This document shows, one piece after another, positions 22,980 through 37,339 of a stretch of DNA of 61,188 nucleotides (the stretch's first letter is position 1; every line of letters starts with the position of its first letter). The stretch is from Patescibacteria group bacterium (GTDB taxonomy: Bacteria; Patescibacteriota; Minisyncoccia; Phycocordibacterales; SBAW01): positions 1 through 61,188 of the forward strand of contig JACOWS010000006.1 in NCBI GenBank assembly GCA_016176685.1. Direction: 5' to 3'. The position numbers were made by a program, and so were the translations under genes. Under the pieces are notes generated by a model, which did no database searches, was not told the origin of the DNA, and saw only the letters and a program-made list of their open reading frames with translations.

Positions 22980-23020
22980 GCACCCCGCCTTCCGTTTGGA
23001 GGCGGGGTGCTTTCTTTTTT
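22980..23020 (+). terminator. intrinsic terminator after pyrE-pyrF
   Basis: GCACCCCGCC/GGCGGGGTGC stem followed by TTTCTTTTTT. Confidence 0.85.
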
Positions 23021-23045
23021 ATGCAAAGCGCGGTACAAAAATGTC

Positions 23046-24011
23046 GTGGCAAAAAAGATTAGAATAATTGCGGTGGTGGGTCCTACCGCTTCTGGCAAGT
23101 CTTCGCTCGGGGTCTACCTTGCACAAAAGTGCGGGGGTGAAATCATTTCTGCCGACAGCCGGCAAGTATACCGCGGGCTTAACATCGGCAGCGGCAAGGT
23201 AACAAAAAAAGAAATGGCGGGTGTCCCCCACCACCTGCTTGATGTTGCCTCACCAAAAAAGCAATTTTCTGCCGACGACTTTGTAAAACATTCAGAAAGA
23301 GCGATAAAAGATATAACGGAAAGTGACTTGATATATCAAGTCACTTTCCGCGCGCAACTCCCCCCCGTGCCAATTGTGGTGGGCGGCACCGGGTTTTATA
23401 CAGACGCGCTTTTGGGGCGCATTACCCTGCCCCAGGTACCGCCAAACCAAAAACTGCGAGAACAACTGGAACAAAAAACAGTCGAGCAATTATTCAAACA
23501 ACTCAAAAAGCTCGATCCCAATCGTGCCAAAACTATAGAGCCATACCACAAGCGCCGGCTCATCAGAGCAATAGAAATAGCTAAATATCCCAACAAATTA
23601 TTGACTACTGGTAAAAATCATAGAGGCGATGCCTCTATGAAATATGATGTGCTTTGGCTTGGTCTTAAGCCCAATACAGAAAAGTTAAAGAAAAACATTC
23701 ATACTCGCCTGCTGGCTCGACTTAAACAAGGCATGGTCGCAGAGGCCAAGCGCCTGCATGCCAGGGGGCTTTCGTACAAACGGATGGAGGAGCTGGGGCT
23801 GGAGTATCGCTCGCTTGCAAAATTTTTACAGAAAAAAATAAGCAAAAAAGAGCTTGAGGAAGAAATAGAGCGTGGTAATTGGCTCTACGCCAAACGGCAA
23901 ATGCGCTGGTTTAAACGCAACCCCGACATCCACTGGGTCAAAAGCCCGCCTGACAGTCGGGCAGGCAAAACAGAGGCCCTGCGGTTGGCGCGAAAGTTTT
24001 TAAAAGATTAG
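23046..24011 (+). CDS. miaA: tRNA dimethylallyltransferase with three in-frame palindromes
   Basis: VVGPTASGKS, IISADSRQVYRG, VVGGTGFY, RRLIRAIE and YAKRQMRWF; GTG start inferred at 23046. Confidence 0.94.
   Translation: MAKKIRIIAVVGPTASGKSSLGVYLAQKCGGEIISADSRQVYRGLNIGSGKVTKKEMAGVPHHLLDVASPKKQFSADDFVKHSERAIKDITESDLIYQVTFRAQLPPVPIVVGGTGFYTDALLGRITLPQVPPNQKLREQLEQKTVEQLFKQLKKLDPNRAKTIEPYHKRRLIRAIEIAKYPNKLLTTGKNHRGDASMKYDVLWLGLKPNTEKLKKNIHTRLLARLKQGMVAEAKRLHARGLSYKRMEELGLEYRSLAKFLQKKISKKELEEEIERGNWLYAKRQMRWFKRNPDIHWVKSPPDSRAGKTEALRLARKFLKD
23317..23350. repeat. perfect 34-bp palindrome in miaA
   Basis: CGGAAAGTGACTTGATATATCAAGTCACTTTCCG. Confidence 0.92.
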
Positions 24012-24012
24012 G

Positions 24013-24084
24013 CGGGCCCACTCCGACTCGAACGGAGAACTCTTCTTTTGGAGAGAAGTGTTTTACCATTGAAACTATAGGCCC
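24013..24084 (-). tRNA. trnW: tRNA-Trp(CCA)
   Basis: GGGCCTA/TGGGCCC acceptor; loop CTCCAAA; CGTTCGAGTCG T-arm. Confidence 0.93.
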
Positions 24085-24740
24085 TTTTGCAGAAAAGCTC
24101 TTGCTATGGCATGTACTTGTCGAGCAATCCTTACATCATAGTACCGTACACTGGCGCACCCTGCATACCCCTTCCGTACATTGCGCCCGCCGTTCTGTTT
24201 TTGATACGGCTTGGTAAACTGCTCAAGTGGGATAGTGGTAACCTCCGACCAAAAAATCAGTTGTTTTTTAGGATTATGATAGTGGTGCAAGTGTATGCAA
24301 ACTCTGAACTTCTTCTCATCTATTGCATACCCTTTCCTGAGATTTCTCAAAAAAGTTTTTACCAACGTCGGGTCTGAATTAGTGAAGATAAGGGATTTGT
24401 CATTTTTTGATTTTTCTCCTTCACACCAGTAGAGCAATGCGCAAATTAGCCTAGCTTGATCGATGCTGTAGGAAATATTTCCGAGCACTTCTTTGGCAAA
24501 GGTATTAGCTTGCTCTAGGTTACGTCTTGTCTGACTCTGATGAGTAAGTGCCGACTTTTCATTGGCTTGCTTACGTTTGACAAGGATTGAGTTACGAGCT
24601 TTTAAAGACAGCTCGATACCGCGCGCCCAATTAGAAGCAGATGACTTTGAGACCCTGAGAATGCCACTAATCTCACTTAATGAGTGCCCTTCCCGGCGCA
24701 ATCGGCGTGCCTTCTCCCTTTCTAAACTTTTAACCCTCAT
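24075..24740 (-). CDS. HTH + LAGLIDADG-like putative endonuclease
   Basis: N-terminal HTH (LRREGHSLSEISGILRVSKSSASNW); LYWCEGEK...FTNSDP LAGLIDADG-like helix; the stop codon lies inside tRNA-Trp. Confidence 0.75.
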   Translation of the reverse strand: MRVKSLEREKARRLRREGHSLSEISGILRVSKSSASNWARGIELSLKARNSILVKRKQANEKSALTHQSQTRRNLEQANTFAKEVLGNISYSIDQARLICALLYWCEGEKSKNDKSLIFTNSDPTLVKTFLRNLRKGYAIDEKKFRVCIHLHHYHNPKKQLIFWSEVTTIPLEQFTKPYQKQNGGRNVRKGYAGCASVRYYDVRIARQVHAIARAFLQKGL

Positions 24741-24788
24741 CGAACCTATTATAACAGTTACATTACAGCAAGTACAAACACTGCTAAT

Positions 24789-24947
24789 CTACTTCTTGGC
24801 CTCTTTGTGGATGGTCCCCGCCCGGCACCACTTGCAGTACTTTTTAAGCTCTATTTTGCGCTCCACCAGCTTCTTGTTTTTGGAGCTCCAATAGTTAATG
24901 CGCTTGCACTTCTGGCATTGCAGTTTGATGAGTCTATCTTGTGACAT
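24789..24947 (-). CDS. rpmG: 50S ribosomal protein L33 (Zn-binding type)
   Basis: Manual translation MSQDRLIKLQCQKCKRINYWSSKNKKLVERKIELKKYCKWCRAGTIHKEAKK; absent from the ORF track (52 aa). Confidence 0.93.
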   Translation of the reverse strand: MSQDRLIKLQCQKCKRINYWSSKNKKLVERKIELKKYCKWCRAGTIHKEAKK

Positions 24948-24989
24948 AGGTCACAGAAATATACCCTAAATGACGTCTTTTAGCAACGG

Positions 24990-25598
24990 TTAGAGCACCG
25001 TGGCCCCAGGACAAAAACTAAAACCAAGGTTTTTACTGGAGTACAGAGGATTAACAGCGTAAGACACGCCCACCCAATAGGTAAGTAGACACATGGCGGT
25101 TTCGTCGATACCAAGAGTTTGCATAAGATACTGTTGCGCATTGAGCCGCGCTTCTCCTATAGGTTCTTGTGAAAGTCCTATGGTAAAACTTTGGTCAGAC
25201 CCGTTGTAAAGTATGTCATAGGGTGGAGAGTTTTCTGTCGGAGGGACCCCTCCAGCAAGAAAGTAGTTCCCGGGATTATTTTTATCCTCCATGGTGCTGG
25301 GTGCATTGATAAAATCGCGCACCGTGATAATCCCTCCATTTCTAGCGGAAACAACCATGGTAGGTTCTTCCCCGGCAGTGCCTTGAGTACCCGTAGTAAC
25401 GGGAACTTGCGAGGTGTTGGGTATACTTCCTCCAGGATACACCGTGGTGCCTCCGGGTTGGCTCGTACTTCCATCACCAAACCCTCTTAGCACAAGAACG
25501 AATATACCAAGCGCAACTATGAGTCCCGCGGTTACCATAATACCGACGGTCCACAATATTTTAGTAATGCGGTTGGAGTTGAGTGGTGAGGGAGGCAT
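24990..25598 (-). CDS. membrane-anchored hypothetical protein
   Basis: N-terminal TM, Thr/Gly-rich linker and a globular C-terminal domain with two Cys; downstream of the pilin fusion. Confidence 0.7.
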   Translation of the reverse strand: MPPSPLNSNRITKILWTVGIMVTAGLIVALGIFVLVLRGFGDGSTSQPGGTTVYPGGSIPNTSQVPVTTGTQGTAGEEPTMVVSARNGGIITVRDFINAPSTMEDKNNPGNYFLAGGVPPTENSPPYDILYNGSDQSFTIGLSQEPIGEARLNAQQYLMQTLGIDETAMCLLTYWVGVSYAVNPLYSSKNLGFSFCPGATVL

Positions 25599-25624
25599 AC
25601 TGTTGATATAGTACCACTATACCG

Positions 25625-27064
25625 TTAATTACAATTGCCGTATGCACCCCAAGCGGTAGGACCTTGGGTCTTTAAAATAGTCTGCGCCGCCTGCGTGTTG
25701 CATTGCACATTTAACGCCGCTTGTACGCATTGCCGGTACAATGATGGGTTAATAACGGTTACATTGTGTTTGTTCGCCGAATATTTTCCGGAGAATGCAT
25801 TTGTGCAATTTAGGACTTGGCCCTGGCAGGCAAAACTATTCTGCCAAGAAAGATTGATCTGATACAAACCAACAGATATTGCCTGTCCGGCCGGTGTTTT
25901 ATCGACACGACTGTAGTTGTTAGCGCCACATGCGCTTTCCCCTTGGGCGATACACGACATAAGGGCTGCTTGTGACCCCCAGGTTGATTGCAGACTAGCA
26001 GGAGAGCAGGTACCTACCCCTACCGCAGAAAGGGGCACGCTTATTGCGCCCAACGACGCACCCGTAGGGTCTATACAACTACCGCCTTGCAGCGTATAAC
26101 CCGCAGGACAACTCGCTACGCCTGTTGGATCCACGCACACCCCTTGCATAAAAGTACCGCCAGTTGACGCACAGGGGTCTATATAGGTCGTCGGCGTGTA
26201 GCTTGACAACCCCGGCAGTGTATTCAAGAAATCACCTACGGTTACCGTATAGTCAACGCCGGGGCGTTTCTGCCCCGAATCACACTGCAAATCGTTCCAA
26301 TGCCCGCCAATGTAGAAGTCTTGCTTAACCAAGACGCTCAAGACGGTTTGCACTACCAGCCAGCCGGTAAGCGCGAACAAAAAACCGATAAAGACATTTT
26401 TAAAAATACCTTTGGCCCTTGTTATATTTGTTTTATTAGCGGCAGAGGTAAAGTACAAGATGCCCGCCCAGGCAAACATAATGACCGCGATGGGGATAGA
26501 AAGACCGATTAAAAAGTTGATGATGTTTTGTATGAGCTGGCCCGCATCACACAAGTTGCAGTTGATACCATTACAAGTCACCAAACCGCCTGCGGGGGGG
26601 CCGCTTTGTGATGATCTGTTCAACTGCGGACTATAGATAGGTGTGGGGTTTGGTTGCGTCTCACTAAGTGAGTTGTTGCCGCCTCCGCCAGAAGGTGTTG
26701 GCGGATTTTCCATCAGGTAACCGCTTGAGCCAGGATAGATATAATTATTTTGTGCGGAAGCAACGGTCACTTTTGCAGAGCAGGTAGTTGTCCCTAAAGA
26801 TCCTACAAAGGTGCCGTTGTAGATAGTGGTGGTGTTTGGACTTACGGTCCTAGCGCCGGAGGTAGCAACATTGCCGAGCGTTGAGATGGTTCCACTGGCC
26901 ACATTGACACTATTCCAGACCAGCTGGGTTGAACCGCCCGGAGCTATGGTGCTTGGATTGGCCTTAATGAAACAACTGGGAAAAGAAAGCTCGGCGGCGT
27001 AGACGGGAGCAGAGACAAGCAGAAAAAAAACGCCGCTCATGAGCCACACAAACCATCGGTTCAT
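25625..27064 (-). CDS. secreted Ig-like + VirB2/TrbC-like pilin + Cys repeats + lysozyme/SLT-like fusion protein
   Basis: Signal peptide; Ig-like segment; pilin hairpin (IINFLIGLSIPIAVIMFAWAGILYFTSAAN...AKGIFKNVFIG); C-terminal CIAQGES...SVGLYQIN...AW. Confidence 0.7.
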   Translation of the reverse strand: MNRWFVWLMSGVFFLLVSAPVYAAELSFPSCFIKANPSTIAPGGSTQLVWNSVNVASGTISTLGNVATSGARTVSPNTTTIYNGTFVGSLGTTTCSAKVTVASAQNNYIYPGSSGYLMENPPTPSGGGGNNSLSETQPNPTPIYSPQLNRSSQSGPPAGGLVTCNGINCNLCDAGQLIQNIINFLIGLSIPIAVIMFAWAGILYFTSAANKTNITRAKGIFKNVFIGFLFALTGWLVVQTVLSVLVKQDFYIGGHWNDLQCDSGQKRPGVDYTVTVGDFLNTLPGLSSYTPTTYIDPCASTGGTFMQGVCVDPTGVASCPAGYTLQGGSCIDPTGASLGAISVPLSAVGVGTCSPASLQSTWGSQAALMSCIAQGESACGANNYSRVDKTPAGQAISVGLYQINLSWQNSFACQGQVLNCTNAFSGKYSANKHNVTVINPSLYRQCVQAALNVQCNTQAAQTILKTQGPTAWGAYGNCN

Positions 27065-27127
27065 ACTTTCTTATGATAGCACTTGTTTTTGCGCGCCTGC
27101 CCCCTTTGTTGTACTCTTTGTGGGTAT

Positions 27128-27213
27128 GCGTCGGTGGTAGAGTGGTCAATTACAACAGGCTGTAAACCTGTCGCCTTCGGGCTACGGAGGTTCGAATCCT
27201 CCCCGGCGCACCA
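27128..27213 (+). tRNA. trnY: tRNA-Tyr(GTA)
   Basis: Loop CTGTAAA, long variable arm, GGTTCGAATCC, encoded CCA. Confidence 0.95.
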
Positions 27214-27349
27214 TTTAGGAAATTGCAAGTCAGAGCTCGCCGCCGCGTAGGACGCGGCGGCTGGCGCATAGTGCGGTTTCGGGTCAAAAACAAATTTGAT
27301 TGGAAAAAAGAAAATTCTTTTGGCATTTAGAAACTAATCAAAACAAACT

Positions 27350-27535
27350 ATGAAGTACGTACTTTACGCTAGAAAGTCCACAGAGGAAGATGACCGCCAA
27401 GTATTGAGCATTGAAGCTCAGCTCGCTGAGCTGTCTTTGTATTCCGCCAAAGAAAAATTTGATATTGTCGCCTCCTTTGAGGAGGCGAAAACCGCCAAGG
27501 AGCCCGGAAAACCATCGGCCCGAACCATGTGTTGA
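27350..27535 (+). pseudogene. serine recombinase/resolvase N-terminal fragment
   Basis: YVLYARKSTEEDDRQVLSIEAQ catalytic motif (YxRxS...Q), truncated at 61 aa by a TGA inside a 31-bp repeat. Confidence 0.85.
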
Positions 27536-27623
27536 TTGGAAAAAAGAAAATTCTTTTGGCATACGCTCAATTGCGATAAATACGTTGGTACATATGGGTA
27601 GTTTTTGATGTCCACACAACCAC

Positions 27624-27653
27624 TTGACAGCTTCATACTTTAGGGTGTATAAT
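27624..27653 (+). promoter_or_regulatory. consensus sigma70 promoter
   Basis: TTGACA-N18-TATAAT, with exact consensus hexamers. Confidence 0.8.
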
Positions 27654-27726
27654 TACAGGGTCATTGGATTCTCTAATGACCCCTACCACGAGGGCTTCGT
27701 GGATGAAGCACCTTGAGGAGAGAAAC

Positions 27727-27951
27727 ATGGATAGCAAGCGCCAAGGCGAAATCGCCCTTGAGCTGGTGAAGACATACGCCAGCAAAAACGGCCTTCCGAG
27801 CGTCGACGAAGCAAAGCGTCGGTTCGGAAATATCGCCAAGGAAACTGGTATTTCGAAGGAAGAGTTGACGGCGTTCGCCGATGCAATTCTTCCCGACCTC
27901 ATCGGTCGGATCTTCGGATACAAGAGTGTCTCCATGGAAACGTCACGGTAA
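27727..27951 (+). CDS. small hypothetical protein (islet cargo), 74 aa
   Basis: SD GAGGAG before ATG 27727; MDSKRQGEIALELVK...; has its own promoter and terminator. Confidence 0.7.
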   Translation: MDSKRQGEIALELVKTYASKNGLPSVDEAKRRFGNIAKETGISKEELTAFADAILPDLIGRIFGYKSVSMETSR

Positions 27952-28068
27952 ATGACGGATAAGAACTTACCACAACACACAGGTTGAGATCCTCGGATCT
28001 CTTAAAGGGTAATGCTCACTATCCTGCGGGATAGAGAGCGAATAAGAACCTTCCTCGTGTTGGTTACT

Positions 28069-28098
28069 GAACCCCTTGCTTCGGCAAGGGGTTCTTTC
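28069..28098 (+). terminator. intrinsic terminator with UUCG loop
   Basis: GAACCCCTTGC-TTCG-GCAAGGGGTTC-TTTC. Confidence 0.85.
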
Positions 28099-28300
28099 TA
28101 TCCATTTGTAAAGAACCATTGTGTGGGCTTTGCCCACTCGAACCTTTTCCGCCAAAGAAAAATTTGATATTGTCAGCGGTGCGGCTTCGCCGCGCCGTTT
28201 TCCTGCGCGGGGTTTGCGCCGCCGCCCCCACCGGCGGCGCTGGTTCGAGCTATTGCAAGTATTTTGCACCATTTAGGAAATTGCAAGTATTTTGCACCAA

Positions 28301-28338
28301 CGTCAAAAAGTCCCAACTTTTGTTGGGACTTTTTGACG
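28301..28338. terminator. 17-bp perfect inverted repeat, probably the clpB terminator
   Basis: CGTCAAAAAGTCCCAAC-TTTT-GTTGGGACTTTTTGACG, 17 nt beyond the clpB stop. Confidence 0.7.
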
Positions 28339-28355
28339 CCCACCTTTGACTATAC

Positions 28356-31070
28356 TTAGGATAAACTTACTTTTTCTTCCCCCAGGATTTCTTGCGGGAG
28401 TTTGACGCGGCGGGTGCGGCCGGTTTTTTTTACCTCAAAAACAAACTCGCCGTCTTTAACATTGACCATTACGCTCCCGCCTTGGAGTACCCCGCGCGAC
28501 ACCATCAAGTTGGCCATTTTGGTTAAAATTTTGTCCTGTATGAGCCGGCGCAGTGGCCGCGCGCCATAGTGCGGGTTGTAACCCTCCTTAGCCAGGTAGT
28601 CGTACACCGCCGGCGCAAACCCGAGCGTAATGTCTTTGGCCGCCAGGCGCGCCACAATTTCTTTAATTGCCTCGGGGCTTAGAATATTGAAGATGATTAT
28701 CTCATCGATACGGTTGAGGAACTCCGGGCGGAAGTGCTCTTTGAGCGCCGCGCTTACCTTTTCCTTCGCCATTTTGTAGTTTTGCGCGTCGCTGGTGCCG
28801 CCGAAGGCAAAGCCGATTTGCTCCATCTTGTCTATGTACTGCGCGCCGATGTTGGAGGTCATAATGATGATAGTGTTGCGGAAGTTGACCCGCCGCCCCT
28901 TGGCATCGGTCAGGTAGCCGTTGTCCAGCACTTGGAGGAGTATGTTAAACACCTCCGGGTGCGCTTTTTCTATCTCGTCAAACAAGAGCACCGCGTAGGG
29001 CCGGTGGCGCACCACTTCGGTCAAGGCGCCGCCCTCTTCGTGTCCCACATAGCCTGGCGGCGCGCCGATAATTTTTGAAACCGAGTGCTTTTCCATATAC
29101 TCGGACATATCTACCCGTATGAGCGACTTTTCGTCGTCAAACATAAACTCCGCAAGCGCGCGCGTGAGCTCGGTCTTGCCCACCCCGGTGGGCCCCAAAA
29201 ACATAAACGAGGCGATAGGCCGGTTGGGGTCGGAGATGCCGGCGCGCGAGCGCTTCACCGCGTCGGACACTTTTCCAACCGCCTCGCTCTGCCCGACCAC
29301 GCGCTCTTTAAGCGACGCTTCGATTCGCATGAGTTTTTGCGCTTCTTCCTCGAGCATGCGCGAGACCGGCACGCCGGTCCATTTTGAAACGACCGAGGCA
29401 ATGTCGCTTTCCGTTATCTCCTCTTTGAGCAGGCGGCGCGAGGTCTGGAGTTTTTTGAGCCTCTTTTGTTTTTGCTCAAGCTCCTTCTCGAGGCTCGGTA
29501 TCTCGCCGTAGCGGATTTCCGCCGCGCGCGAAAGGTCTACCGCCGCCTCGGCGGTGTCCGCCTCCATGCGCAGAGACTCCAGCTCTTTTTTTATAGACTT
29601 AATATCCTGCAAAATCTGCTTTTCGTTCTTCCATCGAAGTTCCAACTCGCCGGTTTTTTCCTTGAGCTCCGCAATATCGCGCTCGATCTCTTTGACGCGC
29701 GCTCCCGCCTTGCCATGAGGCGTCGTGGCGCCTTTTTTGCCGGAAGCGGACTCCTTTTCCCCCTCGGCCTCTTTGCGCAGGGCCTCCTTTTCTACCTCGA
29801 GCCGCATTATTTTGCGGTGGGCATCCTCCAAAACCGGCGGCTTATTTTCCAAAGAGATGCGCAGAGAAGATGCCGCTTCGTCTATAAGGTCTATCGCCTT
29901 GTCGGGCAAAAACCGGTCCGGGATATACCTGGCGGAAAGCTCTACCGCGGTTACTATCGCATTGTCGGTGATGTGCACGCCATGGAAGAGTTCGTATTTT
30001 TCCTTCAGCCCGCGCAAAATAGCGGTCGCATCGTCTATAGACGGCTCAAGTACGTGCACCGGCTGGAAGCGGCGCTGGAACGCCGGGTCGCGCTCGATGT
30101 GTTTTTGATATTCCTTGAGCGTTGTCGCACCCACCACGTGCAGGTCGCCGCGCGCCAGAGCCGGTTTGAGCATATTGCTGGCGTCGAGCGCTCCCTCGGC
30201 GGCACCCGCACCTATCATAGTGTGTATCTCGTCTATAAAAAGGAGGATCTTGCCCTCGGAGCGCTCGATTTCTTTGACTATCGCTTTGAGCCGCTCTTCA
30301 AACTCGCCGCGATACTTGGTGCCGGCGATCAAAGACCCCAGGTCAAGCGAGACGAGCTCTTTGCCGCGCAGAGATTCCGGCACGTCGCCCGTGGCTATCC
30401 GCGAGGCGAGACCCTCGGCTATTGCGGTTTTACCGACTCCCGCCTCGCCTATCAAAATGGGGTTGTTTTTGGTGCGGCGAGAAAGTATTTGGATAACGCG
30501 GCTGATTTCTTCGTCGCGGCCGATAACCGGGTCGAGTTTGTTTTCGGCGGCCATCTTGGTGAGTGAGCGCGTGTATTTGGAAAGCGCTCGGTATTTTTTC
30601 TGCTCCGGGGCGGCCGACTTGCTGGAGCGCAGTTCCGATACCATGCGAACCAACCCGTCCCTGGTGATGCGAAAGCGGTTTAAGAGGTCGCGTGCGGCGC
30701 CGGGTATGTCGAGTAATGCCACAAAAAGATGTTCGGTCGAGACAAACTCGTCGTGGAGTTCGGTGGCCACCTTGGCCGAGCGCTCAAGCACCTGTACCAG
30801 GTCGGGAGTTAGGTACAGCTGGTAGGAAGGCGATAATACTGAAGATACCGAGCCGCTTCCCTCGAGCGCCTCGAGCACCGTGTCGGTGAGCAGTATCACG
30901 TCTATGTCGAGCCGCTCAAGGACGGTGGCAACCAAAGATTCTTCTTGCAGGAGCAGGGCGCCCAACAGATGTATCGGGCTCACTTGGTTTTGGCCGCGCT
31001 CAACGGCGAGCTCGTACGCTCTGCGGACCGCCTCTTTTGCCTTGGTGGTGAAGTGGTTAAATGGGGGCAT
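28356..31070 (-). CDS. clpB: ATP-dependent chaperone ClpB
   Basis: Two AAA+ modules ([16 protein letters not shown]), coiled-coil M-domain, IDLIDEA and GYVGHEEGG. Confidence 0.95.
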
Positions 31071-31085
31071 ATAGTTACTTATATA

Positions 31086-31913
31086 TTACGAACTGGTGGC
31101 TGGTTTTGTTTCAGTAGGGTTTACGGGGGCGGCGGGGGCGGCAGTTTGCGGTATGGAGTAGAAGTCGGAGCCACGCGCTGTCGACTCGGCGGTTATCATG
31201 CCCACCACCTCTCCAAAAAGCGTGATGATAATGGAACCCGGTGTTGCCGAGGACACACTTGCCTCAATCATGCTCGGCGCGGTACCTGGGGCGCCGGCCG
31301 GGATCATTGCAACCACTCCGGAGCCGACTGTGTCTGCACTGATACCGCCGATACGGATGACCGTTTGCCCTAGCGCCACTTTGCTGATGTCAACTATTTT
31401 TACCGGGGCAAAGCCGGTAGAGGTACCGACCGCAACCGCAATGGTTGCGAGCGGGGTCGAGGTTGCCTGCATCGAGGGGAGAGTAAGCGGGACGCGCTCG
31501 CCGCTTGCCAGAATCGCCTCAAAGTCTGTAGCTCCGGATGCCGAGAGTGCCGCACGGTCGGTTAGGCCCGCGCCCTCTTGGCTCATGATAATGCCGCGCG
31601 CCACCAACGTATCGCCCCCCCTTGCAACGATGCGGATAATCCCCTTTTGCACCGAGGCGATAGATTGTGCGATAAGGTCGTCATCTTTAACTACCACCGT
31701 CTTCTCGGTCACGGTTACTGCCGCGGCGCCCAGGTTTTGCGGCACTACTCTTTCTATAGTTTTCTCGACTATCTGATTAACGACCTTGGTGACCCCGGCT
31801 GGGGCTTGGTCCATGAGAGAAACGGTGACTATGCCGGTTGCTATAGACGTCACAAAACTCACCAAAAGCGTGAGTAAAATAATCTGATGCTTAGTGAGCT
31901 TTTCTATATCCAT
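31086..31913 (-). CDS. membrane-anchored trypsin/HtrA-like fold protein, catalytic residues not recognisable
   Basis: TM plus S1C-like layout (GIIMSQEG.GLTDRA, LGQTVI, GEVVGM) without the TNxH or GNSGG motifs. Confidence 0.6.
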   Translation of the reverse strand: MDIEKLTKHQIILLTLLVSFVTSIATGIVTVSLMDQAPAGVTKVVNQIVEKTIERVVPQNLGAAAVTVTEKTVVVKDDDLIAQSIASVQKGIIRIVARGGDTLVARGIIMSQEGAGLTDRAALSASGATDFEAILASGERVPLTLPSMQATSTPLATIAVAVGTSTGFAPVKIVDISKVALGQTVIRIGGISADTVGSGVVAMIPAGAPGTAPSMIEASVSSATPGSIIITLFGEVVGMITAESTARGSDFYSIPQTAAPAAPVNPTETKPATSS

Positions 31914-31937
31914 ACCACAATGTTTTTCTAAGCCGCA

Positions 31938-33266
31938 TTATAGCACATGACGGTACAGTGCGACAATACTTTCCAAGGCGCGGGCGATAGTACGCGCGTC
32001 GGCTCTTGTGGCGGTTGGCAAAAGGGTCAGCCGCAGTGAAGAGCGCGCCAACTCCGGAGAAACGCCGAGCGCCTCAAGCATGTGGCTGGGGTGGCCCGAG
32101 GAAGTGTCGCAGGCACTGCGGGTCGAGGCGGCGATGCCGCCCGCGTCGAGCGCTATAACCGCCATCTCACCGGAGAGACCGGGTATTATTAAATTAATAT
32201 TATTTGCAATCCGGCAGGCCGGAGAAAAGGGGGTAAGACTTGGCCTAGCGGCCCGGAGCGCACCCTTTTCCTGGCCTGCCGGATTGTTCCCACATGCCGG
32301 ACCGTTGAGTTTTGCACTCGGAATGCGCCGCTGTATTTCGCTCCATAAAAAGTCGCGCACAGCCGCCGTCTGCAGTGCGCGTGCTTCGCACCCTTTTGCC
32401 GCCTCCACAAGCGCCGCGGCAAACGCACCGGCCGCGGCGACATTTTCTGTCCCACTGCGCAAACCGGCCTCTTGCCCGCCGCCCCAAATAATCGGCTCAA
32501 CCAAAGTACCGCGGCGTACGTAGAGAGCTCCTATACCTTTTGGCCCGCCGACCTTTTGCGCATCCAGAGTCATCAAATCAACGCCAAGTTTTTCTACATT
32601 AAGCGGCAGCCACAGGGGCGCCTGCGACGCATCGGTGTGCAGGTAAAGCGGGGCAGAATCTCGCAAAGCGAGGGTAAGACTTGGGTCTTTAGCGGCCCGG
32701 AGCGCCCGAGTGTGCGGGATTCTGCCCCGCTTTATAAAACGCAGTTCTTTTGCAATCGCGCGGATGTCTTGCACCGCGCCCATTTCGCTGTTGACCATCT
32801 GCACCGACAAAAGCGCGGTGTCCTCGCCTACCGCTTCGCGCAACTGTTTTGGGTCTAGGAGTCCGTGTGCATCTACGGTAAGTTTTGTAACATACAAACC
32901 CTCGCGCTCAAGCGCGCGCAGGGGTTCCAATACCGAAGAATGTTCTATCGCGCTCGTGACTGCCCCCACCTCTCCACGATCTAAAAGAAGCGGCCGCAAT
33001 ACGCCTTGGAGCGCGAGGTTGTTTGCCTCGGTACCGCTGCCCACAAATATAATTTCGTCCGCGTGGGCGCCGATGGCGCCTGCAACTTTCGCGCGCGCGG
33101 CCTCAAGCTCTTTTTGTGCCGCAACCGCCTCCTGGTGGAGCGCGCTTGGATTGCCAAAAAGCCGCAAGAGCCGTGCAAGCTCTTTTCGTGCCGCGCGCGA
33201 GAGCGGCATCGCCGCCGCCGCGTCTGCATAGACCCGTTTACCCGGCCATCGTATCTGCCATTTCAT
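31938..33266 (-). CDS. iscS: cysteine desulfurase (IscS/NifS family) with two in-frame hairpin insertions
   Basis: GNPSALH, SGTEANN, HTDASQ, DAQKVGGPKGIG, RSGTEN and STRSAC (catalytic Cys). Confidence 0.92.
   Translation of the reverse strand: MKWQIRWPGKRVYADAAAAMPLSRAARKELARLLRLFGNPSALHQEAVAAQKELEAARAKVAGAIGAHADEIIFVGSGTEANNLALQGVLRPLLLDRGEVGAVTSAIEHSSVLEPLRALEREGLYVTKLTVDAHGLLDPKQLREAVGEDTALLSVQMVNSEMGAVQDIRAIAKELRFIKRGRIPHTRALRAAKDPSLTLALRDSAPLYLHTDASQAPLWLPLNVEKLGVDLMTLDAQKVGGPKGIGALYVRRGTLVEPIIWGGGQEAGLRSGTENVAAAGAFAAALVEAAKGCEARALQTAAVRDFLWSEIQRRIPSAKLNGPACGNNPAGQEKGALRAARPSLTPFSPACRIANNINLIIPGLSGEMAVIALDAGGIAASTRSACDTSSGHPSHMLEALGVSPELARSSLRLTLLPTATRADARTIARALESIVALYRHVL
32207..32286. 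repeat. in-frame hairpin element 1 in iscS
   Basis: 14-bp perfect arms CAATCCGGCAGGCC/GGCCTGCCGGATTG; core shared with 32644-32734. Confidence 0.88.
32644..32734. repeat. in-frame hairpin element 2 in iscS
   Basis: 22-bp arms (1 mismatch); core GGGTAAGACTTGG...TAGCGGCCCGGAGCGC. Confidence 0.88.
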
Positions 33267-33300
33267 ATTCGCTCCAATCTACTATATACTGTTTGTACGT

Positions 33301-34833
33301 ATGAGCGAAACGGCCGCGGATAAGGGGGTTCGGCCCCCGATTGTTGCCATTGTGGGACATATAGACCACGGCAAGTCCACCCTGCTCGACTATATTCGAA
33401 AGACCAATGTGGTAGAAGCGGAGGCGGGAGGTATCACCCAACACCTCTCCGCCTACGAAGCCGTGCACAAAAACACAACCGGAGAACATCGCATAACCTT
33501 CCTCGACACGCCGGGGCACGAGGCCTTTAAAGCGATGCGCTCGCGGGGGCTTGAGGTCGCCGACGTTGCTATTTTGGTAGTCTCTGCAGAGGATGGCGTA
33601 AAACCGCAAACGGTAGAGACGCTTAAACTTATTGCCGATACAAAAATTCCTTACATTGTTGCACTCACCAAAATAGACAAACCGGATGCCAATGTAGAAA
33701 AAGCAAAAATGTCTTTGCTCGAGCATGGCGTCTACCTTGAAGGGCTCGGCGGCAACATCCCCTATGTTGCCATTTCAAGCAAGACAGGCGCGGGAGTGCC
33801 GGAGCTGTTGGACCTCATTTTGCTTGCCGCAGAGCTCGAGGGTATCTCCGGAGACCCGGCCGCCCCGCCTAAGGGCGTGGTGCTAGATGCGTACGCCGAC
33901 AGCAAGCGCGGCACCACCGCCACGCTGCTGGTAAAAAACGGCACACTGGAGAGTGGCCAGTTTGTGGTTGCCGGTGATGCGTGGGCTCCGGTGCGGATTA
34001 TGGAAAACTTTTTGGGCAAATCCATACAGCTAGCACTCCCAGGGAGCCCTGCTCGAGTGGTGGGTTTTTCCGCTCTCCCGGCCGCGGGGAGATCGTTTAT
34101 GGTTGTGCATAGTAAAAAAGAGGCAGAGGCACAAGCGCTTGCCAACGCGCCCAAAAAAGCCGGCAGACCCATGCCGGCCGCCCTAGACGCCACCGAGGCA
34201 CAAAGCGAGGAACCGACGCCGCATCTGGTACTCCCTATTGTTATCAAAACAGATGTGGCCGGCATGGGCGATGCGGTTATGCACGAGCTTCGCAAGCTGC
34301 CCCAGAGCGAGCAGTTGGAAATACACCTGGCGCTCCAGGGCGTGGGCCCTATTTCCGAAAACGACGTCAAGCTGGTGGGCGGCGGCAAAACACCCGGGCT
34401 TATCATCGGCTTCAACGTCAAGGCGGATGCCGCGGTACGCGAGGCGGCAGAGCGGCACGGCGTGGTGATAGGTATGTTTGATGTCATCTACAAGCTCGGT
34501 GAGTGGCTCGGCAAAGAGTTTGAGGCGCGCCGGCCCAAAGTGCGCACGGAGGAGCGTACCGCCGCCGCCAAGGTTTTAAAATATTTTAGCGGCGGTAAGG
34601 GCAAGGTGGTCTTGGGCGGCCGAGTCGAGGAGGGCACTTTGGCGTTGGGCGAGGAAGTGTATTTTTTTAGACGCGACCTCAATCTTGGTTCCGGCACCAT
34701 CACCAACCTCCAGGCGCAGAAAAAAGAGGTGAAGCGGGTCGAGGCCGGGGCCGAGTTTGGCGCGCAGATAAAAACATCGGTGGAGCCGGCACCCGGCGAC
34801 AAGTTCGAGGCGCACGCTATCGTATTTAAATAA
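33301..34833 (+). CDS. infB: translation initiation factor IF-2 (short form, no N-terminal domain)
   Basis: [29 protein letters not shown] and IIGFNV; 510 aa. Confidence 0.95.
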
Positions 34834-35148
34834 ATGCACAATCGAGACGACAAAATGCGCGAGGCACTGCGCGAGGTTGCGGCAGAGTTTTTGTCGCGCG
34901 AGGCAAACCCCACCCCGCTTATCACGGTGACCCGCGCCGCACTAAGCGAGGACCACGCGCGCGGCGTGGTGTATATGACCGTGTTCCCCGAGTCGGGCGA
35001 GGCGGCTGCGGTTGCTTTTGCCAACCGCGCCGCTGGGGAGTTTGCAACGTTTTTTAAAAAGCGCATCCGCGGCATGTCGCCGCCGCGCGTTGTGTTTGAA
35101 ATTGATAAGGGAGAAAAAAGCCGCCAACGGCTCGACCAATTACTCTAG
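34834..35148 (+). CDS. rbfA: ribosome-binding factor A
   Basis: ITVTRAALSED...PRVVFEID; directly after infB. Confidence 0.85.
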   Translation: MHNRDDKMREALREVAAEFLSREANPTPLITVTRAALSEDHARGVVYMTVFPESGEAAAVAFANRAAGEFATFFKKRIRGMSPPRVVFEIDKGEKSRQRLDQLL

Positions 35149-35220
35149 AGGCCACGGCGGGAATCGCACCCGCGTATAAGGGTTTTGCAGACCCTTGCCT
35201 TACTACTTGGCTACGTGGCC
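35149..35220 (-). tRNA. trnC: tRNA-Cys(GCA)
   Basis: GGCCACG acceptor; loop CTGCAAA; T-loop TGCGATT. Confidence 0.92.
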
Positions 35221-35260
35221 GTGTTTGTTACTGTATCATTTGATGGTAAAAATAGTAAAC

Positions 35261-35342
35261 GCCCGGGTGGCGGAATTGGTATACGCGCTCGACTTAAGAT
35301 CGAGTTCCGTAAGGAATGTGAGTTCGAGTCTCACCCCGGGCA
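35261..35342 (+). tRNA. trnL: tRNA-Leu(TAA)
   Basis: GCCCGGG/CCCGGGC acceptor; loop CTTAAGA; variable arm; GTTCGAGTC. Confidence 0.93.
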
Positions 35343-35378
35343 CCTGTTAGTGAGAAAGACCAAAGACGCATAAATGCT

Positions 35379-35867
35379 ATGAAATTACTTACAGGGCAGG
35401 AAGAACAAGAAGCAAATAAGTGGTTTGGCGAGGCGGCACAGGTCGCGCGCAGAGCGCTCTGCCTACGTGCCAAGTGTGGAGCAGTTATTGTGAAAGACGG
35501 AGAGATAATTGGCGAAGGATACAATGCCCCGCCGCAAGATAATCCCGAATTCCGAACGTGTTTGAATGAATACGAATTGCCTAAAAATTATCGCCATGAC
35601 CACACCTGTTGCATGCATTCCGAATGGCGAGCCATACTCGACGCCAAAGAACGCAACCCCGCCAAACTCAAGGGCTCACGGCTATATTTTGTGCGAGTAA
35701 CGGATGCAGGCGAATGTAAGCGTTCAGGAAAACCTTATTGCACGGTATGTAGCAGACTCGCGCTTGATTCGAGGATAGCGGAGTTCGTCCTCTGGCAAGA
35801 GGAAGGTTTTGCCGTTTTTCCGACCGATGAATACAATCAGCTCTCGTTTCAAAATATAAAAGAGTAA
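35379..35867 (+). CDS. dCMP deaminase-like Zn-dependent deaminase
   Basis: CLRAKCGAVIV...GYNAPP; HSEWRAI (HxE); PYCTVC (PCxxC variant). Confidence 0.85.
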   Translation: MKLLTGQEEQEANKWFGEAAQVARRALCLRAKCGAVIVKDGEIIGEGYNAPPQDNPEFRTCLNEYELPKNYRHDHTCCMHSEWRAILDAKERNPAKLKGSRLYFVRVTDAGECKRSGKPYCTVCSRLALDSRIAEFVLWQEEGFAVFPTDEYNQLSFQNIKE

Positions 35868-35919
35868 TCCAGACCGAGGGACTTAAGTCTGCTATAGTAA
35901 AATCATCAATACGGTCTTT

Positions 35920-36807
35920 ATGGAATGTATTTACGGCCCGCTTGCGAAAGAATTGCCGGACGGTTTTGCCCCGCCGGAGATGTGGCCGGAGTACGGGCAT
36001 CTTGTCGACCCGGCAGCCATTTGCAAACGCGAAGCCATAAGTAGCGACCCCATGGGCATCCGCTGGAGTTTGTGGCCACTGACGTTTGAAGAGTACGTCG
36101 GCGACACGGTCCCCGATGTAGTGCAGGCAAGCACGGGCGCGCTTGCCTACAGCCGGCTTGCGGTGTGGTACCGGGTACGAAACAACAACAGCGTGGCTCC
36201 CGGTGGGTGGTGGCAGTGGTCCAAACAAACCTATCGCATAGACGGCTATCAGATTCTCTCTTTCCACGAGCACATAACGGCGCACTGGAACAAAAACGCG
36301 CGCAGAGAATTGCGGCTGTGGCAGGAGCGGCACATGGGGACAACGCACGCCGTGATAGAGTTGTCGTTGGAAAAATATACCGAAGCATATAAAAAAAGTT
36401 TGATATCCAAACGACAGGGCAATGACCGACTCTACGCCCTACAGAGAAGGTTGAGACTTCCGGAGGTGGCCGCACACACCACGCTGTGGGGTGTTGTTAA
36501 CAGGCACAACGGTGCCGTGGTAGCCGGCACGGCGATAATCTATTCCCCCACTTATAAAAGCTCGACGCATTTTGCACCATTTATCCTCAAGGAGGCGCGG
36601 CCCATATTTGCGGCCACGGCACTTATACACCATTGGTTTGCCGAGTCGCTACGGAAAGGGATGCCTAAAATAATAACCACCAACTTTTGGCACCAGGGCA
36701 AACCTAAAAGCTGGAAGGGGTTCTCCGAGTTTAAATCGCACTTTGGGTTTACCTACGTTGCATATCCGCCGACCTTGTACCGGTTTGTGGGCGGAAAGTT
36801 TTTTTAA
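35920..36807 (+). CDS. hypothetical protein with GNAT/FemAB-like C-terminal fold
   Basis: WNKNARREL, GAVVAGTAII, ATALIHHWF and GFSEFKSHFG resemble the FemABX-type pattern. Confidence 0.6.
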   Translation: MECIYGPLAKELPDGFAPPEMWPEYGHLVDPAAICKREAISSDPMGIRWSLWPLTFEEYVGDTVPDVVQASTGALAYSRLAVWYRVRNNNSVAPGGWWQWSKQTYRIDGYQILSFHEHITAHWNKNARRELRLWQERHMGTTHAVIELSLEKYTEAYKKSLISKRQGNDRLYALQRRLRLPEVAAHTTLWGVVNRHNGAVVAGTAIIYSPTYKSSTHFAPFILKEARPIFAATALIHHWFAESLRKGMPKIITTNFWHQGKPKSWKGFSEFKSHFGFTYVAYPPTLYRFVGGKFF

Positions 36808-36812
36808 AATAT

Positions 36813-37142
36813 ATGAAAGGGTATGTATACATTCTAAAGGTAAGAAATGGGAATAGATACATTGGATCTACAATAAATTTAGAGAAGAGGGTGCTTGAAC
36901 ATATGAGAGGAAAAGTTTTCTCGACTAAGAATAAGTTACCGGTTACTTTAATGGCTTATAGATTTTTTGAAGATGTAAAAGAAGCTTCACTCTGGGAAAA
37001 AAAGTATAAAAAGAGTCACGGACAGTTGGAAAGAGACATTAAAAAAGGTATATTACTTCTTACTCCAGATGGACTGCCCGCCGGGCAGAGCCCTCTGGGC
37101 GGCGCCGCCCATAGCTCAGTTGGTAGAGCAACTCCCTCTTAA
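36813..37142 (+). CDS. GIY-YIG nuclease whose ORF runs into tRNA-Lys
   Basis: GYVYILK...YIGSTINLEKRVLEH...EKKYKK; the tail derives from a REP-like element and the tRNA 5' half. Confidence 0.85.
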   Translation: MKGYVYILKVRNGNRYIGSTINLEKRVLEHMRGKVFSTKNKLPVTLMAYRFFEDVKEASLWEKKYKKSHGQLERDIKKGILLLTPDGLPAGQSPLGGAAHSSVGRATPS

Positions 37143-37177
37143 GGAGATGGTCCGAGGTTCGAATCCTCGTGGGCGGA
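37105..37177 (+). tRNA. trnK: tRNA-Lys(CTT)
   Basis: CCGCCCA/TGGGCGG acceptor; TAGCTCAGTTGGTAGAGC; loop CTCTTAA; GGTTCGAATCC. Confidence 0.93.
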
Positions 37178-37339
37178 CAAAAGACAATAAAACCTGCCCT
37201 GCGGCAGGTTTTTTGCTTTTGTCCGAGGCGCAGCTATGTCCCGCACTTGCGGGACAGCGAGCCGGGGTCGCGAGCGCACCGAGTGACGGCGAGGTGCGAC
37301 TTGTGACGACAAGGTATTATGATATAGCATGCAGAATAT

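Follow-up and report, generated by a model that had tools for sequence, protein, structure and literature searches.

Two open reading frames (ORFs) in a 61,188-nucleotide (nt) stretch of DNA from a Patescibacteria group bacterium (contig JACOWS010000006.1 of assembly GCA_016176685.1), hereafter the window, end on stop codons that lie inside the tRNA gene immediately downstream. One is a 221-amino-acid (aa) ORF on the reverse strand (24075..24740), which carries an N-terminal helix-turn-helix (HTH) and ends within tRNA-Trp, and the other is a 109-aa GIY-YIG ORF on the forward strand (36813..37142), which ends within tRNA-Lys. Both are probably members of selfish, homing-endonuclease-like gene families. 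The reading that we favor, with reasonable confidence, is that mobile homing-endonuclease-like cassettes occupy the 5′ edges of tRNA genes, that borrowing a stop codon from the tRNA is a by-product of this position, and that ribonuclease P (RNase P) and transfer-messenger RNA (tmRNA) possibly throttle their expression. The overlap of stop codon and tRNA exceeds chance, and the conserved feature is docking beside the tRNA, not the stop-in-tRNA state.

The window is contig C7 of a 550-kb genome in seven contigs, with 40 tRNAs. The tRNA-Trp(CCA) gene (24011..24084, reverse strand), the sole tRNA-Trp gene in the genome, shares 10 nt (24075..24084) with the 221-aa ORF, whose 3′ end reads ...CAA AAG GGC CTA TAG; the TAG (24077..24075) is U8-A9-G10 of the tRNA. 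The tRNA-Lys(CTT) gene (37105..37178, forward strand) shares 38 nt (37105..37142) with the GIY-YIG ORF, which ends ...CCC TCT TAA, the stop (37140..37142) being T36-A37-A38 in the anticodon loop. An earlier account made from the letters alone, hereafter the sequence-only reading, had placed both stops and the tRNA 5′ ends (24084 for Trp, 37105 for Lys) at these positions, and ARAGORN together with the ORF sequences shows that the overlaps are real. Both ORFs are reproduced without differences in contigs of four groundwater metagenome runs; the runs that hold the window sequence are of DNA only, with no RNA run among the matches. Across the genome, same-strand ORFs of at least 60 aa run into 6 of the 40 tRNAs and stop there. 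Of these ORFs, two look spurious and four look real, namely the two window ORFs, an HTH paralogue at tRNA-Met on contig C2, and a membrane-protein gene at tRNA-Arg(TCT). The last of these (contig C4:72842-73477, reverse strand) encodes an ordinary-looking, 211-aa multi-pass membrane protein and stops on the TAG formed by U8-A9-G10 of its tRNA, and stop borrowing is therefore not restricted to nuclease-like genes.

The frequency of such overlaps was counted in a pooled set of 381 tRNAs from 201 sequences, made up of the window's genome and loci fetched by protein similarity, not by tRNA proximity. For each tRNA, the nearest upstream same-strand ORF was classed with hidden Markov models, with other ORFs of at least 120 aa as the control class. 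The stop codon lies fully inside the downstream tRNA for 70 of 132 members of the HTH family and 8 of 28 GIY-YIG genes, against 2 of 103 control ORFs (Fisher tests, p = 7e-20 and 6e-5, respectively), which makes the overlap about 25-fold more frequent in the HTH family than in control genes, the direction that the sequence-only reading had anticipated. Patescibacterial genes are tightly packed, 24 of the 103 ordinary ORFs come within 2–30 nt 5′ of a same-strand tRNA, and the two spurious-looking ORFs also end inside tRNAs of this genome, all of which would suit the view that the overlaps are accidents of a compact genome or come from ORFs called too long. The control counts contradict it, with ordinary ORFs that come this close almost never overlapping (2 of 103, against 53% and 29% in the two families). 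Sequence conservation among homologues extends to within a few residues of the tRNA, and the assembly is confirmed by the metagenome contigs; we consider chance a very improbable source of these overlaps.

The 221-aa ORF represents the Trp type of a large family, so far unannotated, whose genes sit docked on tRNA genes. Statistics for this type come from the best 80 loci of 193 relatives, found in a scan with one genome per species, and span Paceibacteria, Microgenomates, ABY1 groups, Saccharimonadia, and Doudnabacteria; the NCBI labels are unreliable for many of the metagenome-assembled genomes among these loci. In all 72 intact Trp-type ORFs with a detectable tRNA, the next same-strand feature is tRNA-Trp(CCA), with the stop mostly at -13..+19, where an offset gives the place of the first stop-codon base in tRNA numbering; the extremes are -62 and +61. 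Of the 72 stops, 44 lie wholly within the tRNA, 51 overlap it at least in part, and 21 precede it, mostly by 2–13 nt, with modes at 8 (24 loci, a count that includes five loci with the ARAGORN tRNA start one base off), 13–14 (12 loci), 19 (4 loci) and 11 (3 loci). Trp-type homologues thus do not usually stop before the tRNA, the outcome that would have spoken against the sequence-only reading. About 100 close homologues of the 221-aa protein have 216–226 aa, and their C-termini after a conserved ...ARAFLxK resemble translated tRNA 5′ ends (KGL, TGP, YGPIVQW, GRVV). The stop-in-tRNA state itself is not conserved, as the counts above show for the Trp type, for the whole HTH family and for the GIY-YIG genes: some 29–40% of HTH-family homologues keep their own stop a few bases before the tRNA, and the state varies between close relatives within the genus, the offset being -4 in genome G016 and +8 in G000 and G010.

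The positions of the stops follow from what tRNA genes would offer to a frame that runs into them. Conserved tRNA bases spell early stops in two frames, as TAG at U8-A9-G10 and as TAA, TAG or TGA in the D-loop, and often at positions 36–38 in the third. Among the 381 tRNAs, the frame through position 8 meets a stop within the first 21 nt in 76% (235 of them at position 8), the frame through position 13 does so in 38% (positions 13 and 19), and the third frame in 17%, where the commonest stop is at position 36. The two window stops are therefore the default stops of their frames. A gene ending at a tRNA edge can thus lose its own stop and borrow one from the tRNA, which would cost the ORF a few extra residues, and the overlap would be mainly a by-product of docking and compaction. 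We read it in this way because the stops are the tRNA's own triplets, the state flips among close relatives, and an ordinary gene also overlaps.

The sequence-only reading had gone further, and proposed that the stop is placed in the tRNA so that RNase P strips it from the message as a built-in off switch, the non-stop product being tagged through tmRNA and degraded, or that nuclease output is coupled to tRNA processing. Parts of this proposal hold. The overlap is strongly enriched, the majority of Trp-type homologues stop inside the tRNA, and the genome carries a tmRNA (C2 33250..33638, with tag AKSVASPYFSVNDLSFATARA) and a candidate RNase P RNA (C3 48396..48714; full model, E = 1e-31), whose 99 bits are one below the Rfam gathering cut-off of 100. 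No terminator was found between the 221-aa ORF and tRNA-Trp, nor between the GIY-YIG ORF and tRNA-Lys, where the first terminator 3′ of the ORF is an intrinsic one after the tRNA (37189..37212, forward strand); cleavage by RNase P would therefore take the stop away from any message that extends through the tRNA, and such a message would be expected to go to tmRNA rescue. Many docked tRNAs are without the positional -10 peak of free tRNAs, which makes co-transcription likely, with the reservation that this difference is not decisive: -10-like hexamers are found in 31% of docked and 35% of free tRNAs, and only the positional peak differs. It is plausible on these grounds that tRNA processing removes the stop. 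A selected switch fits poorly with the homologues that stop before the tRNA, the spread of offsets and the differences between close relatives, and the stops are merely the first triplets that tRNAs offer. The membrane-protein gene overlaps its tRNA likewise, and the overlap of the GIY-YIG ORF turns on a single base of frame within its GC-rich leader. An off switch could result from the overlap; as a selected function, whether off switch or coupling, we regard it as unlikely.

In the mechanism that we favor, members of these families would colonize the 5′ flank of patescibacterial tRNA genes, on the strand of the tRNA and within ∼15 nt of its first base. The same genome carries a tRNA-Trp type, in the window, and a tRNA-Met type, and small GIY-YIG genes dock less strictly. 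The nuclease would cut an empty allele, and the cassette would be copied in, probably together with the tRNA. The ORF would then be co-transcribed with its tRNA, and RNase P cleavage would leave a stop-less message to be handled by tmRNA, lowering expression of the selfish gene.

Presence and absence at a conserved locus, with intact empty sites, is found both for the Trp type and for the GIY-YIG gene at tRNA-Lys(CTT). A DNA search with the tRNA-Trp sequence did not recover the empty Trp sites because the alleles are too divergent, and anchoring on the upstream host gene rpmG (ribosomal protein L33; 24789..24947, reverse strand) succeeded. The anchored comparison holds 30 loci, from 28 congeners, one relative of another family, and the window itself. 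In about 20 congeners the spacer between rpmG and tRNA-Trp measures 15–87 nt, usually with a -10-like box 8–9 nt before the tRNA. Occupied gaps measure 704–853 nt, and among the ∼30 species compared the Trp type is present in G000, G010 and G016 only. In the tRNA-Trp of these three the anticodon stems are CTTCT/AGAAG or CCTCT/AGAGG, against NCGGT/ACCGN in 26 of 26 empty alleles (p = 3e-4); the three alleles are 82–93% identical to occupied alleles of other lineages and at most 75% identical to the empty alleles of their own genus. The convergent neighbor miaA (tRNA isopentenyltransferase; 23007..24011, forward strand), whose stop codon ends on the base annotated as the 3′ terminus of tRNA-Trp, gives no grouping of the occupied species: the identity of G000 is 62% with G016, as it is with several empty species, and 50% with G010. 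This comparison suggests that the Trp-type gene and its tRNA-Trp allele travel together.

Several observations weigh against mobile, homing-endonuclease-like cassettes. The link between cassette and allele is not clean: the tRNA-Trp of G000 is closest to loci whose protein is just 43% identical, and protein and tRNA similarities rank the partners differently, the 74-nt comparisons being noisy. The occupied allele is fixed in the sampled population, since no empty-site contig at ≥95% identity was seen in the metagenome contigs and the joints that skip the ORF are all below 95% identity, i.e., from other species. At tRNA-Lys(CTT), the tRNA is 100% identical in two congeners that do not have the GIY-YIG gene, and there is therefore no sign of co-conversion. 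About 95% of HTH-family copies are intact, which is unusual for purely selfish endonuclease genes and could reflect a host function. The C-terminal domain of the 221-aa protein matches no nuclease fold and the protein no sequence family beyond HTH, and for both proteins nuclease activity and a cleavage site are putative.

A bolder version of the same idea, which we offer as a tentative possibility, would make the HTH proteins of Patescibacteria a very large superfamily, as yet unannotated, in which the C-terminal domain has a nuclease fold not described before. Every subfamily would then act as a gene drive on a single tRNA gene, cutting the resident allele of an essential, usually single-copy tRNA and being copied in with a resistant tRNA allele that replaces it. 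With no spacing between gene and tRNA, and with a borrowed stop, drive and immunity would always go together; the pre-tRNA leader would serve as a safe harbor, and RNase P and tmRNA would throttle expression automatically.

The turnover of tRNA-Trp in the genus is unusually fast for a single-copy tRNA gene. Within one GTDB genus (loci L169-L197), two very different empty-site tRNA-Trp types occur, GGGCCTATAG... and GGGCGATTAG..., and tRNA-Trp is found in both orientations relative to rpmG and miaA. The rpmG-tRNA-Trp spacers of G024 (L174) and G025 (L182) hold unrelated ORFs for small secreted proteins with signal peptides, and L182 and L183 (G007) share an element beginning GGGCCTATAtcttcggc, a copy of the first 9 nt of tRNA-Trp.

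Beyond the Trp type, a profile search of 1.8 billion representatives with the HTH family gave 8426 clusters (50% identity) at E ≤ 1e-3, some of the weakest of which may be hits to the HTH only, and 4335 at E ≤ 1e-10. The family is represented in 28 of 60 relatives of the window's genome, often by two to four distant paralogues. In 52 places fetched, paralogues abut tRNAs for Val(GAC), Arg(CCG, GCG, CCT, TCG), Gln(TTG), Ile(TAT, GAT), Thr(TGT, CGT), Tyr, Gly(TCC, GCC), and Met. On a tree of 114 proteins of the family, 17 tRNA labels need 16 changes, which is the minimum, as against 38–40 with shuffled labels. The HTH family is thus split into subfamilies, each tied to one tRNA species.

Two further kinds of family member were noted. 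The paralogue on contig C2 (76433-77146, forward strand; 27% identity) lies between two divergent tRNA-Met(CAT) genes and stops at a TAA at position 37 of the downstream one (77108..77182). Six proteins of 440–576 aa (P0207, P0218, P0236, P0237, P0241, and P0244) match the family profile in three stretches, and could have arisen by tandem fusion or be ORFs that continue through arrays of tRNAs.

The DNA immediately upstream of the 221-aa ORF bears on how the gene could be controlled. The spacer to rpmG (24741..24788, reverse strand), as read from the sequence, has AGGTTCG immediately 5′ of the ATG, no Shine-Dalgarno sequence, and a near-palindrome ATGTAACTGTTAT at 24763..24751. It also holds a perfect -10 hexamer, TATAAT (24753..24748), which ends 7 nt from the ATG and was left uncalled by a full sigma-70 scan because the -35 is weak. 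The DNA 5′ of HTH genes is conserved across distant taxa (24741-24763 in the window; loci L001-L080). Palindromes of the type GGTTATATAACC or ATAACTGTTAT (GTTA-N-TAAC) occur upstream in 13 of 67 loci under a strict pattern, against 0.6 expected, and a T-loop-like GGTTCGA motif stands directly 5′ of the ATG in 13 of 67, against 0.7 expected. A -10-like box lies 4–12 nt before the start codon in 43 of 67 loci; its distance is not fixed, and many loci have longer conserved leaders. This conserved DNA may serve as an operator or a promoter, or may be left over from a tRNA. A tRNA remnant 5′ of the Trp-type gene was considered and dropped, there being no recognizable partial tRNA, just the GGTTCGA-like motif. 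Leaderless expression of the HTH gene from the displaced tRNA promoter is a possibility.

These palindromes are one reason to consider that the HTH protein is a domesticated host factor, that is, a DNA-binding regulator specific to a tRNA gene, which shares a transcript with its tRNA and controls itself through the upstream palindrome, and not a mobile nuclease. The HTH is the only domain with support, no nuclease fold is recognized, and the high intact fraction would be expected of such a factor. A host regulator would not be expected to be missing from most congeners despite their sharing the tRNA and the order of genes, to be multi-copy with a different tRNA partner for each subfamily, or to have a foreign base composition (GC 0.44 in the 221-aa ORF, against 0.52–0.54 for the contigs of the genome). 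An unrelated family of true nucleases, GIY-YIG, docks likewise. Taken together, we judge domestication of this kind to be quite unlikely.

The protein itself had been labeled HTH-LAGLIDADG-like in the sequence-only reading, and only the first half of that label is supported. The protein consists of an N-terminal HTH (residues ∼7–45), a long helix, and a C-terminal alpha/beta domain with an invariant YWCEGxK. The HTH is matched by HTH_23 in 34 of 35 members, is similar to the PAI subdomain of Sleeping Beauty, and in a profile search of PDB sequences matches HTH proteins only. For the window protein and 35 aligned members (E ≤ 1), Pfam, NCBIfam, and PHROGs give HTH families only, with no match to a LAGLIDADG family. 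AlphaFold models the C-terminal domain with a predicted local distance difference test score of 93 as alpha-beta-alpha-beta-alpha-beta-beta-alpha, which is not the alpha-beta-beta-alpha-beta-beta-alpha fold of LAGLIDADG. With two AlphaFold models, the Foldseek top 50 against the PDB contains no LAGLIDADG enzyme; the best matches of the C-terminal domain are YfiB/OmpA-like chains, at a template modeling (TM) score of ∼0.4 and E about 3e-3 (best hit, TM 0.41 and E = 3.6e-3), and none of them counts as significant. A Foldseek viral library gave weak, non-significant matches to inteins and homing endonucleases (E 0.2–1.7, TM 0.35–0.48), and hhalign of the C-domain profile against I-CreI was null (probability 0.08%). 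At the end of helix 93–107, residues Y104, W105, E107, G108 and K110 show little or no variation, and this end resembles that of the LAGLIDADG helix, with an acidic residue followed by Gly. The LAGLIDADG assignment was thus rejected on sequence, structure, and hhalign. A PD-(D/E)xK reading of D123...E142-x-K144, made from the sequence, has no structural match to support it and was also rejected. We infer nuclease activity of the 221-aa protein only from the behavior of its family.

The GIY-YIG label of the 109-aa ORF, by comparison, was borne out. The ORF matches Pfam PF01541 (E = 1.3e-13; 51.5 bits, cut-off 22.6), and the residues that mark the superfamily along with this match can be read as GYV(3-5), YIG(16-18), R26 and E62. 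Its GC is 0.38, against the same 0.52–0.54 for the genome. The homologues are mostly 85–93 aa, cover ∼73% of the query, and end near its residue 86, where the conserved core ends (∼37070). The tail beyond this is read-through of a GC-rich tRNA-Lys leader (37071..37104, forward strand; hairpin CTGCCC-GCC-GGGCAG at 37074..37088), followed by the 38 nt of tRNA-Lys. The leader is translated as LPAGQSPLGGA in the metagenomic homologues P0103, P0104, and P0106, two of which are one base out of the window's frame and end ...GGARP, a frame that would place the stop on the tRNA TAG at 8-10. In one contig per run, in all four runs and at a depth similar to that of the organism, an extra G follows 37089, which, if that contig carries the GIY-YIG gene, would shift the stop in its frame from the anticodon loop to the TAG at tRNA 8-10. 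In all four runs contig depth also jumps ∼four-fold at 37077, where differing upstream sequences join, and the 28-nt GC-rich leader and tRNA-Lys are therefore common to several co-occurring organisms.

Small GIY-YIG genes of this kind are present in 172 of 400 genomes of the phylum, often as several copies. Among 30 loci, 21 have the gene within 120 nt 5′ of a same-strand tRNA, and 6 of these genes stop inside it; some subfamilies keep one tRNA, e.g., Ser(GCT) or Ala(GGC). Within the window's genus, the GIY-YIG gene stands before tRNA-Lys(CTT) in G000 and G014 only, and the stop in G014 is the TAG at 8-10. A promoter-like site, TTGGAA-17-TATATT (37026..37054, forward strand; a consensus match only), lies within the 3′ end of the GIY-YIG ORF and could drive tRNA-Lys independently of it; in G014, the same coding motif (GGTATATT) is 10 nt 5′ of the tRNA. 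A 14-nt perfect palindrome, GGGCGGCGCCGCCC (37097..37110), straddles the 5′ end of tRNA-Lys and mimics the acceptor 3′ strand. The first pair of this tRNA is C1-G72 (CCGCCCA...TGGGCGG), as in most tRNA-Lys genes of the genus, with G1 in some congeners.

Full-text searches of the literature found no description of tRNA-docked nuclease genes in Patescibacteria, and the nearest precedent is SegB of phage T4. SegB is a free-standing GIY-YIG homing endonuclease in a tRNA gene cluster that recognizes the T-psi-C motif of tRNA, and it drives the inheritance of itself and of neighboring tRNA genes, with cleavage and homing both proven (PMC2330249). The window genes are like SegB in that a nuclease gene lies free among tRNA genes and that its presence varies among related genomes. 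They differ in that SegB is a phage gene, whereas the window genes are part of a patescibacterial chromosome, have a predicted nuclease role, and in the larger family are not GIY-YIG. Their families also dock within ∼15 nt of the tRNA 5′ end and on its strand, keep one subfamily per tRNA, and often borrow the stop. Compared with the small GIY-YIG proteins of URI / COG2827, the window ORF has the same PF01541 match and the GIY, YIG, Arg, and Glu residues in a core of ∼86 aa, while its systematic place 5′ of tRNA genes and its read-through tail fall outside the family description.

LAGLIDADG homing endonucleases are common in patescibacterial rRNA insertions. The HTH family is like the I-CreI type in the size of the C-terminal domain and in selfish-element behavior, and its helix end with an acidic-Gly pair (YWCEGxK) recalls that of the LAGLIDADG helix, but it differs in topology and in having no Pfam LAGLIDADG match. 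Animal mitochondrial tRNA punctuation offers a likeness in processing, in that excision of an abutting tRNA makes the mRNA 3′ end and decides whether the stop is complete. There, processing and polyadenylation complete the stop genome-wide, whereas here processing would remove it, and would do so only for mobile-looking genes. Escherichia coli secG-leuU is an example of a bacterial mRNA-tRNA co-transcript split by RNase P. Such transcripts likewise join a coding message to a downstream tRNA, but the ORF ends before the tRNA, no stop is shared, and the gene is not mobile.

If the cassettes are indeed mobile and homing-endonuclease-like, tRNA genes of the largest uncultured bacterial radiation would be routinely colonized by site-specific selfish genes, which would explain the fast turnover of tRNA alleles and flanks in these tiny genomes. 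Thousands of annotations as 'hypothetical', 'helix-turn-helix' or 'transposase' would gain a function, and annotators would be warned that ORFs ending inside tRNAs are real here. The families would provide natural DNA-binding, possibly DNA-cutting proteins with many different and predictable targets, one tRNA gene each, and one domain without a known structural relative. They would also let one study, in a natural setting, how tRNA processing and non-stop rescue treat an mRNA whose final codons belong to a tRNA as well.

Two neighbors of the GIY-YIG gene, one by position and one by similarity, complete the description. A 295-aa ORF (35920-36807, forward strand), for which no Pfam or NCBIfam match was found, lies directly 5′ of the GIY-YIG gene, with 5 nt between its stop and the start codon of that gene. 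Another small GIY-YIG gene (43% identity; contig C4:75472-75675, forward strand) lies 84 nt 3′ of tRNA-Ser(TGA), and not 5′ of a tRNA.

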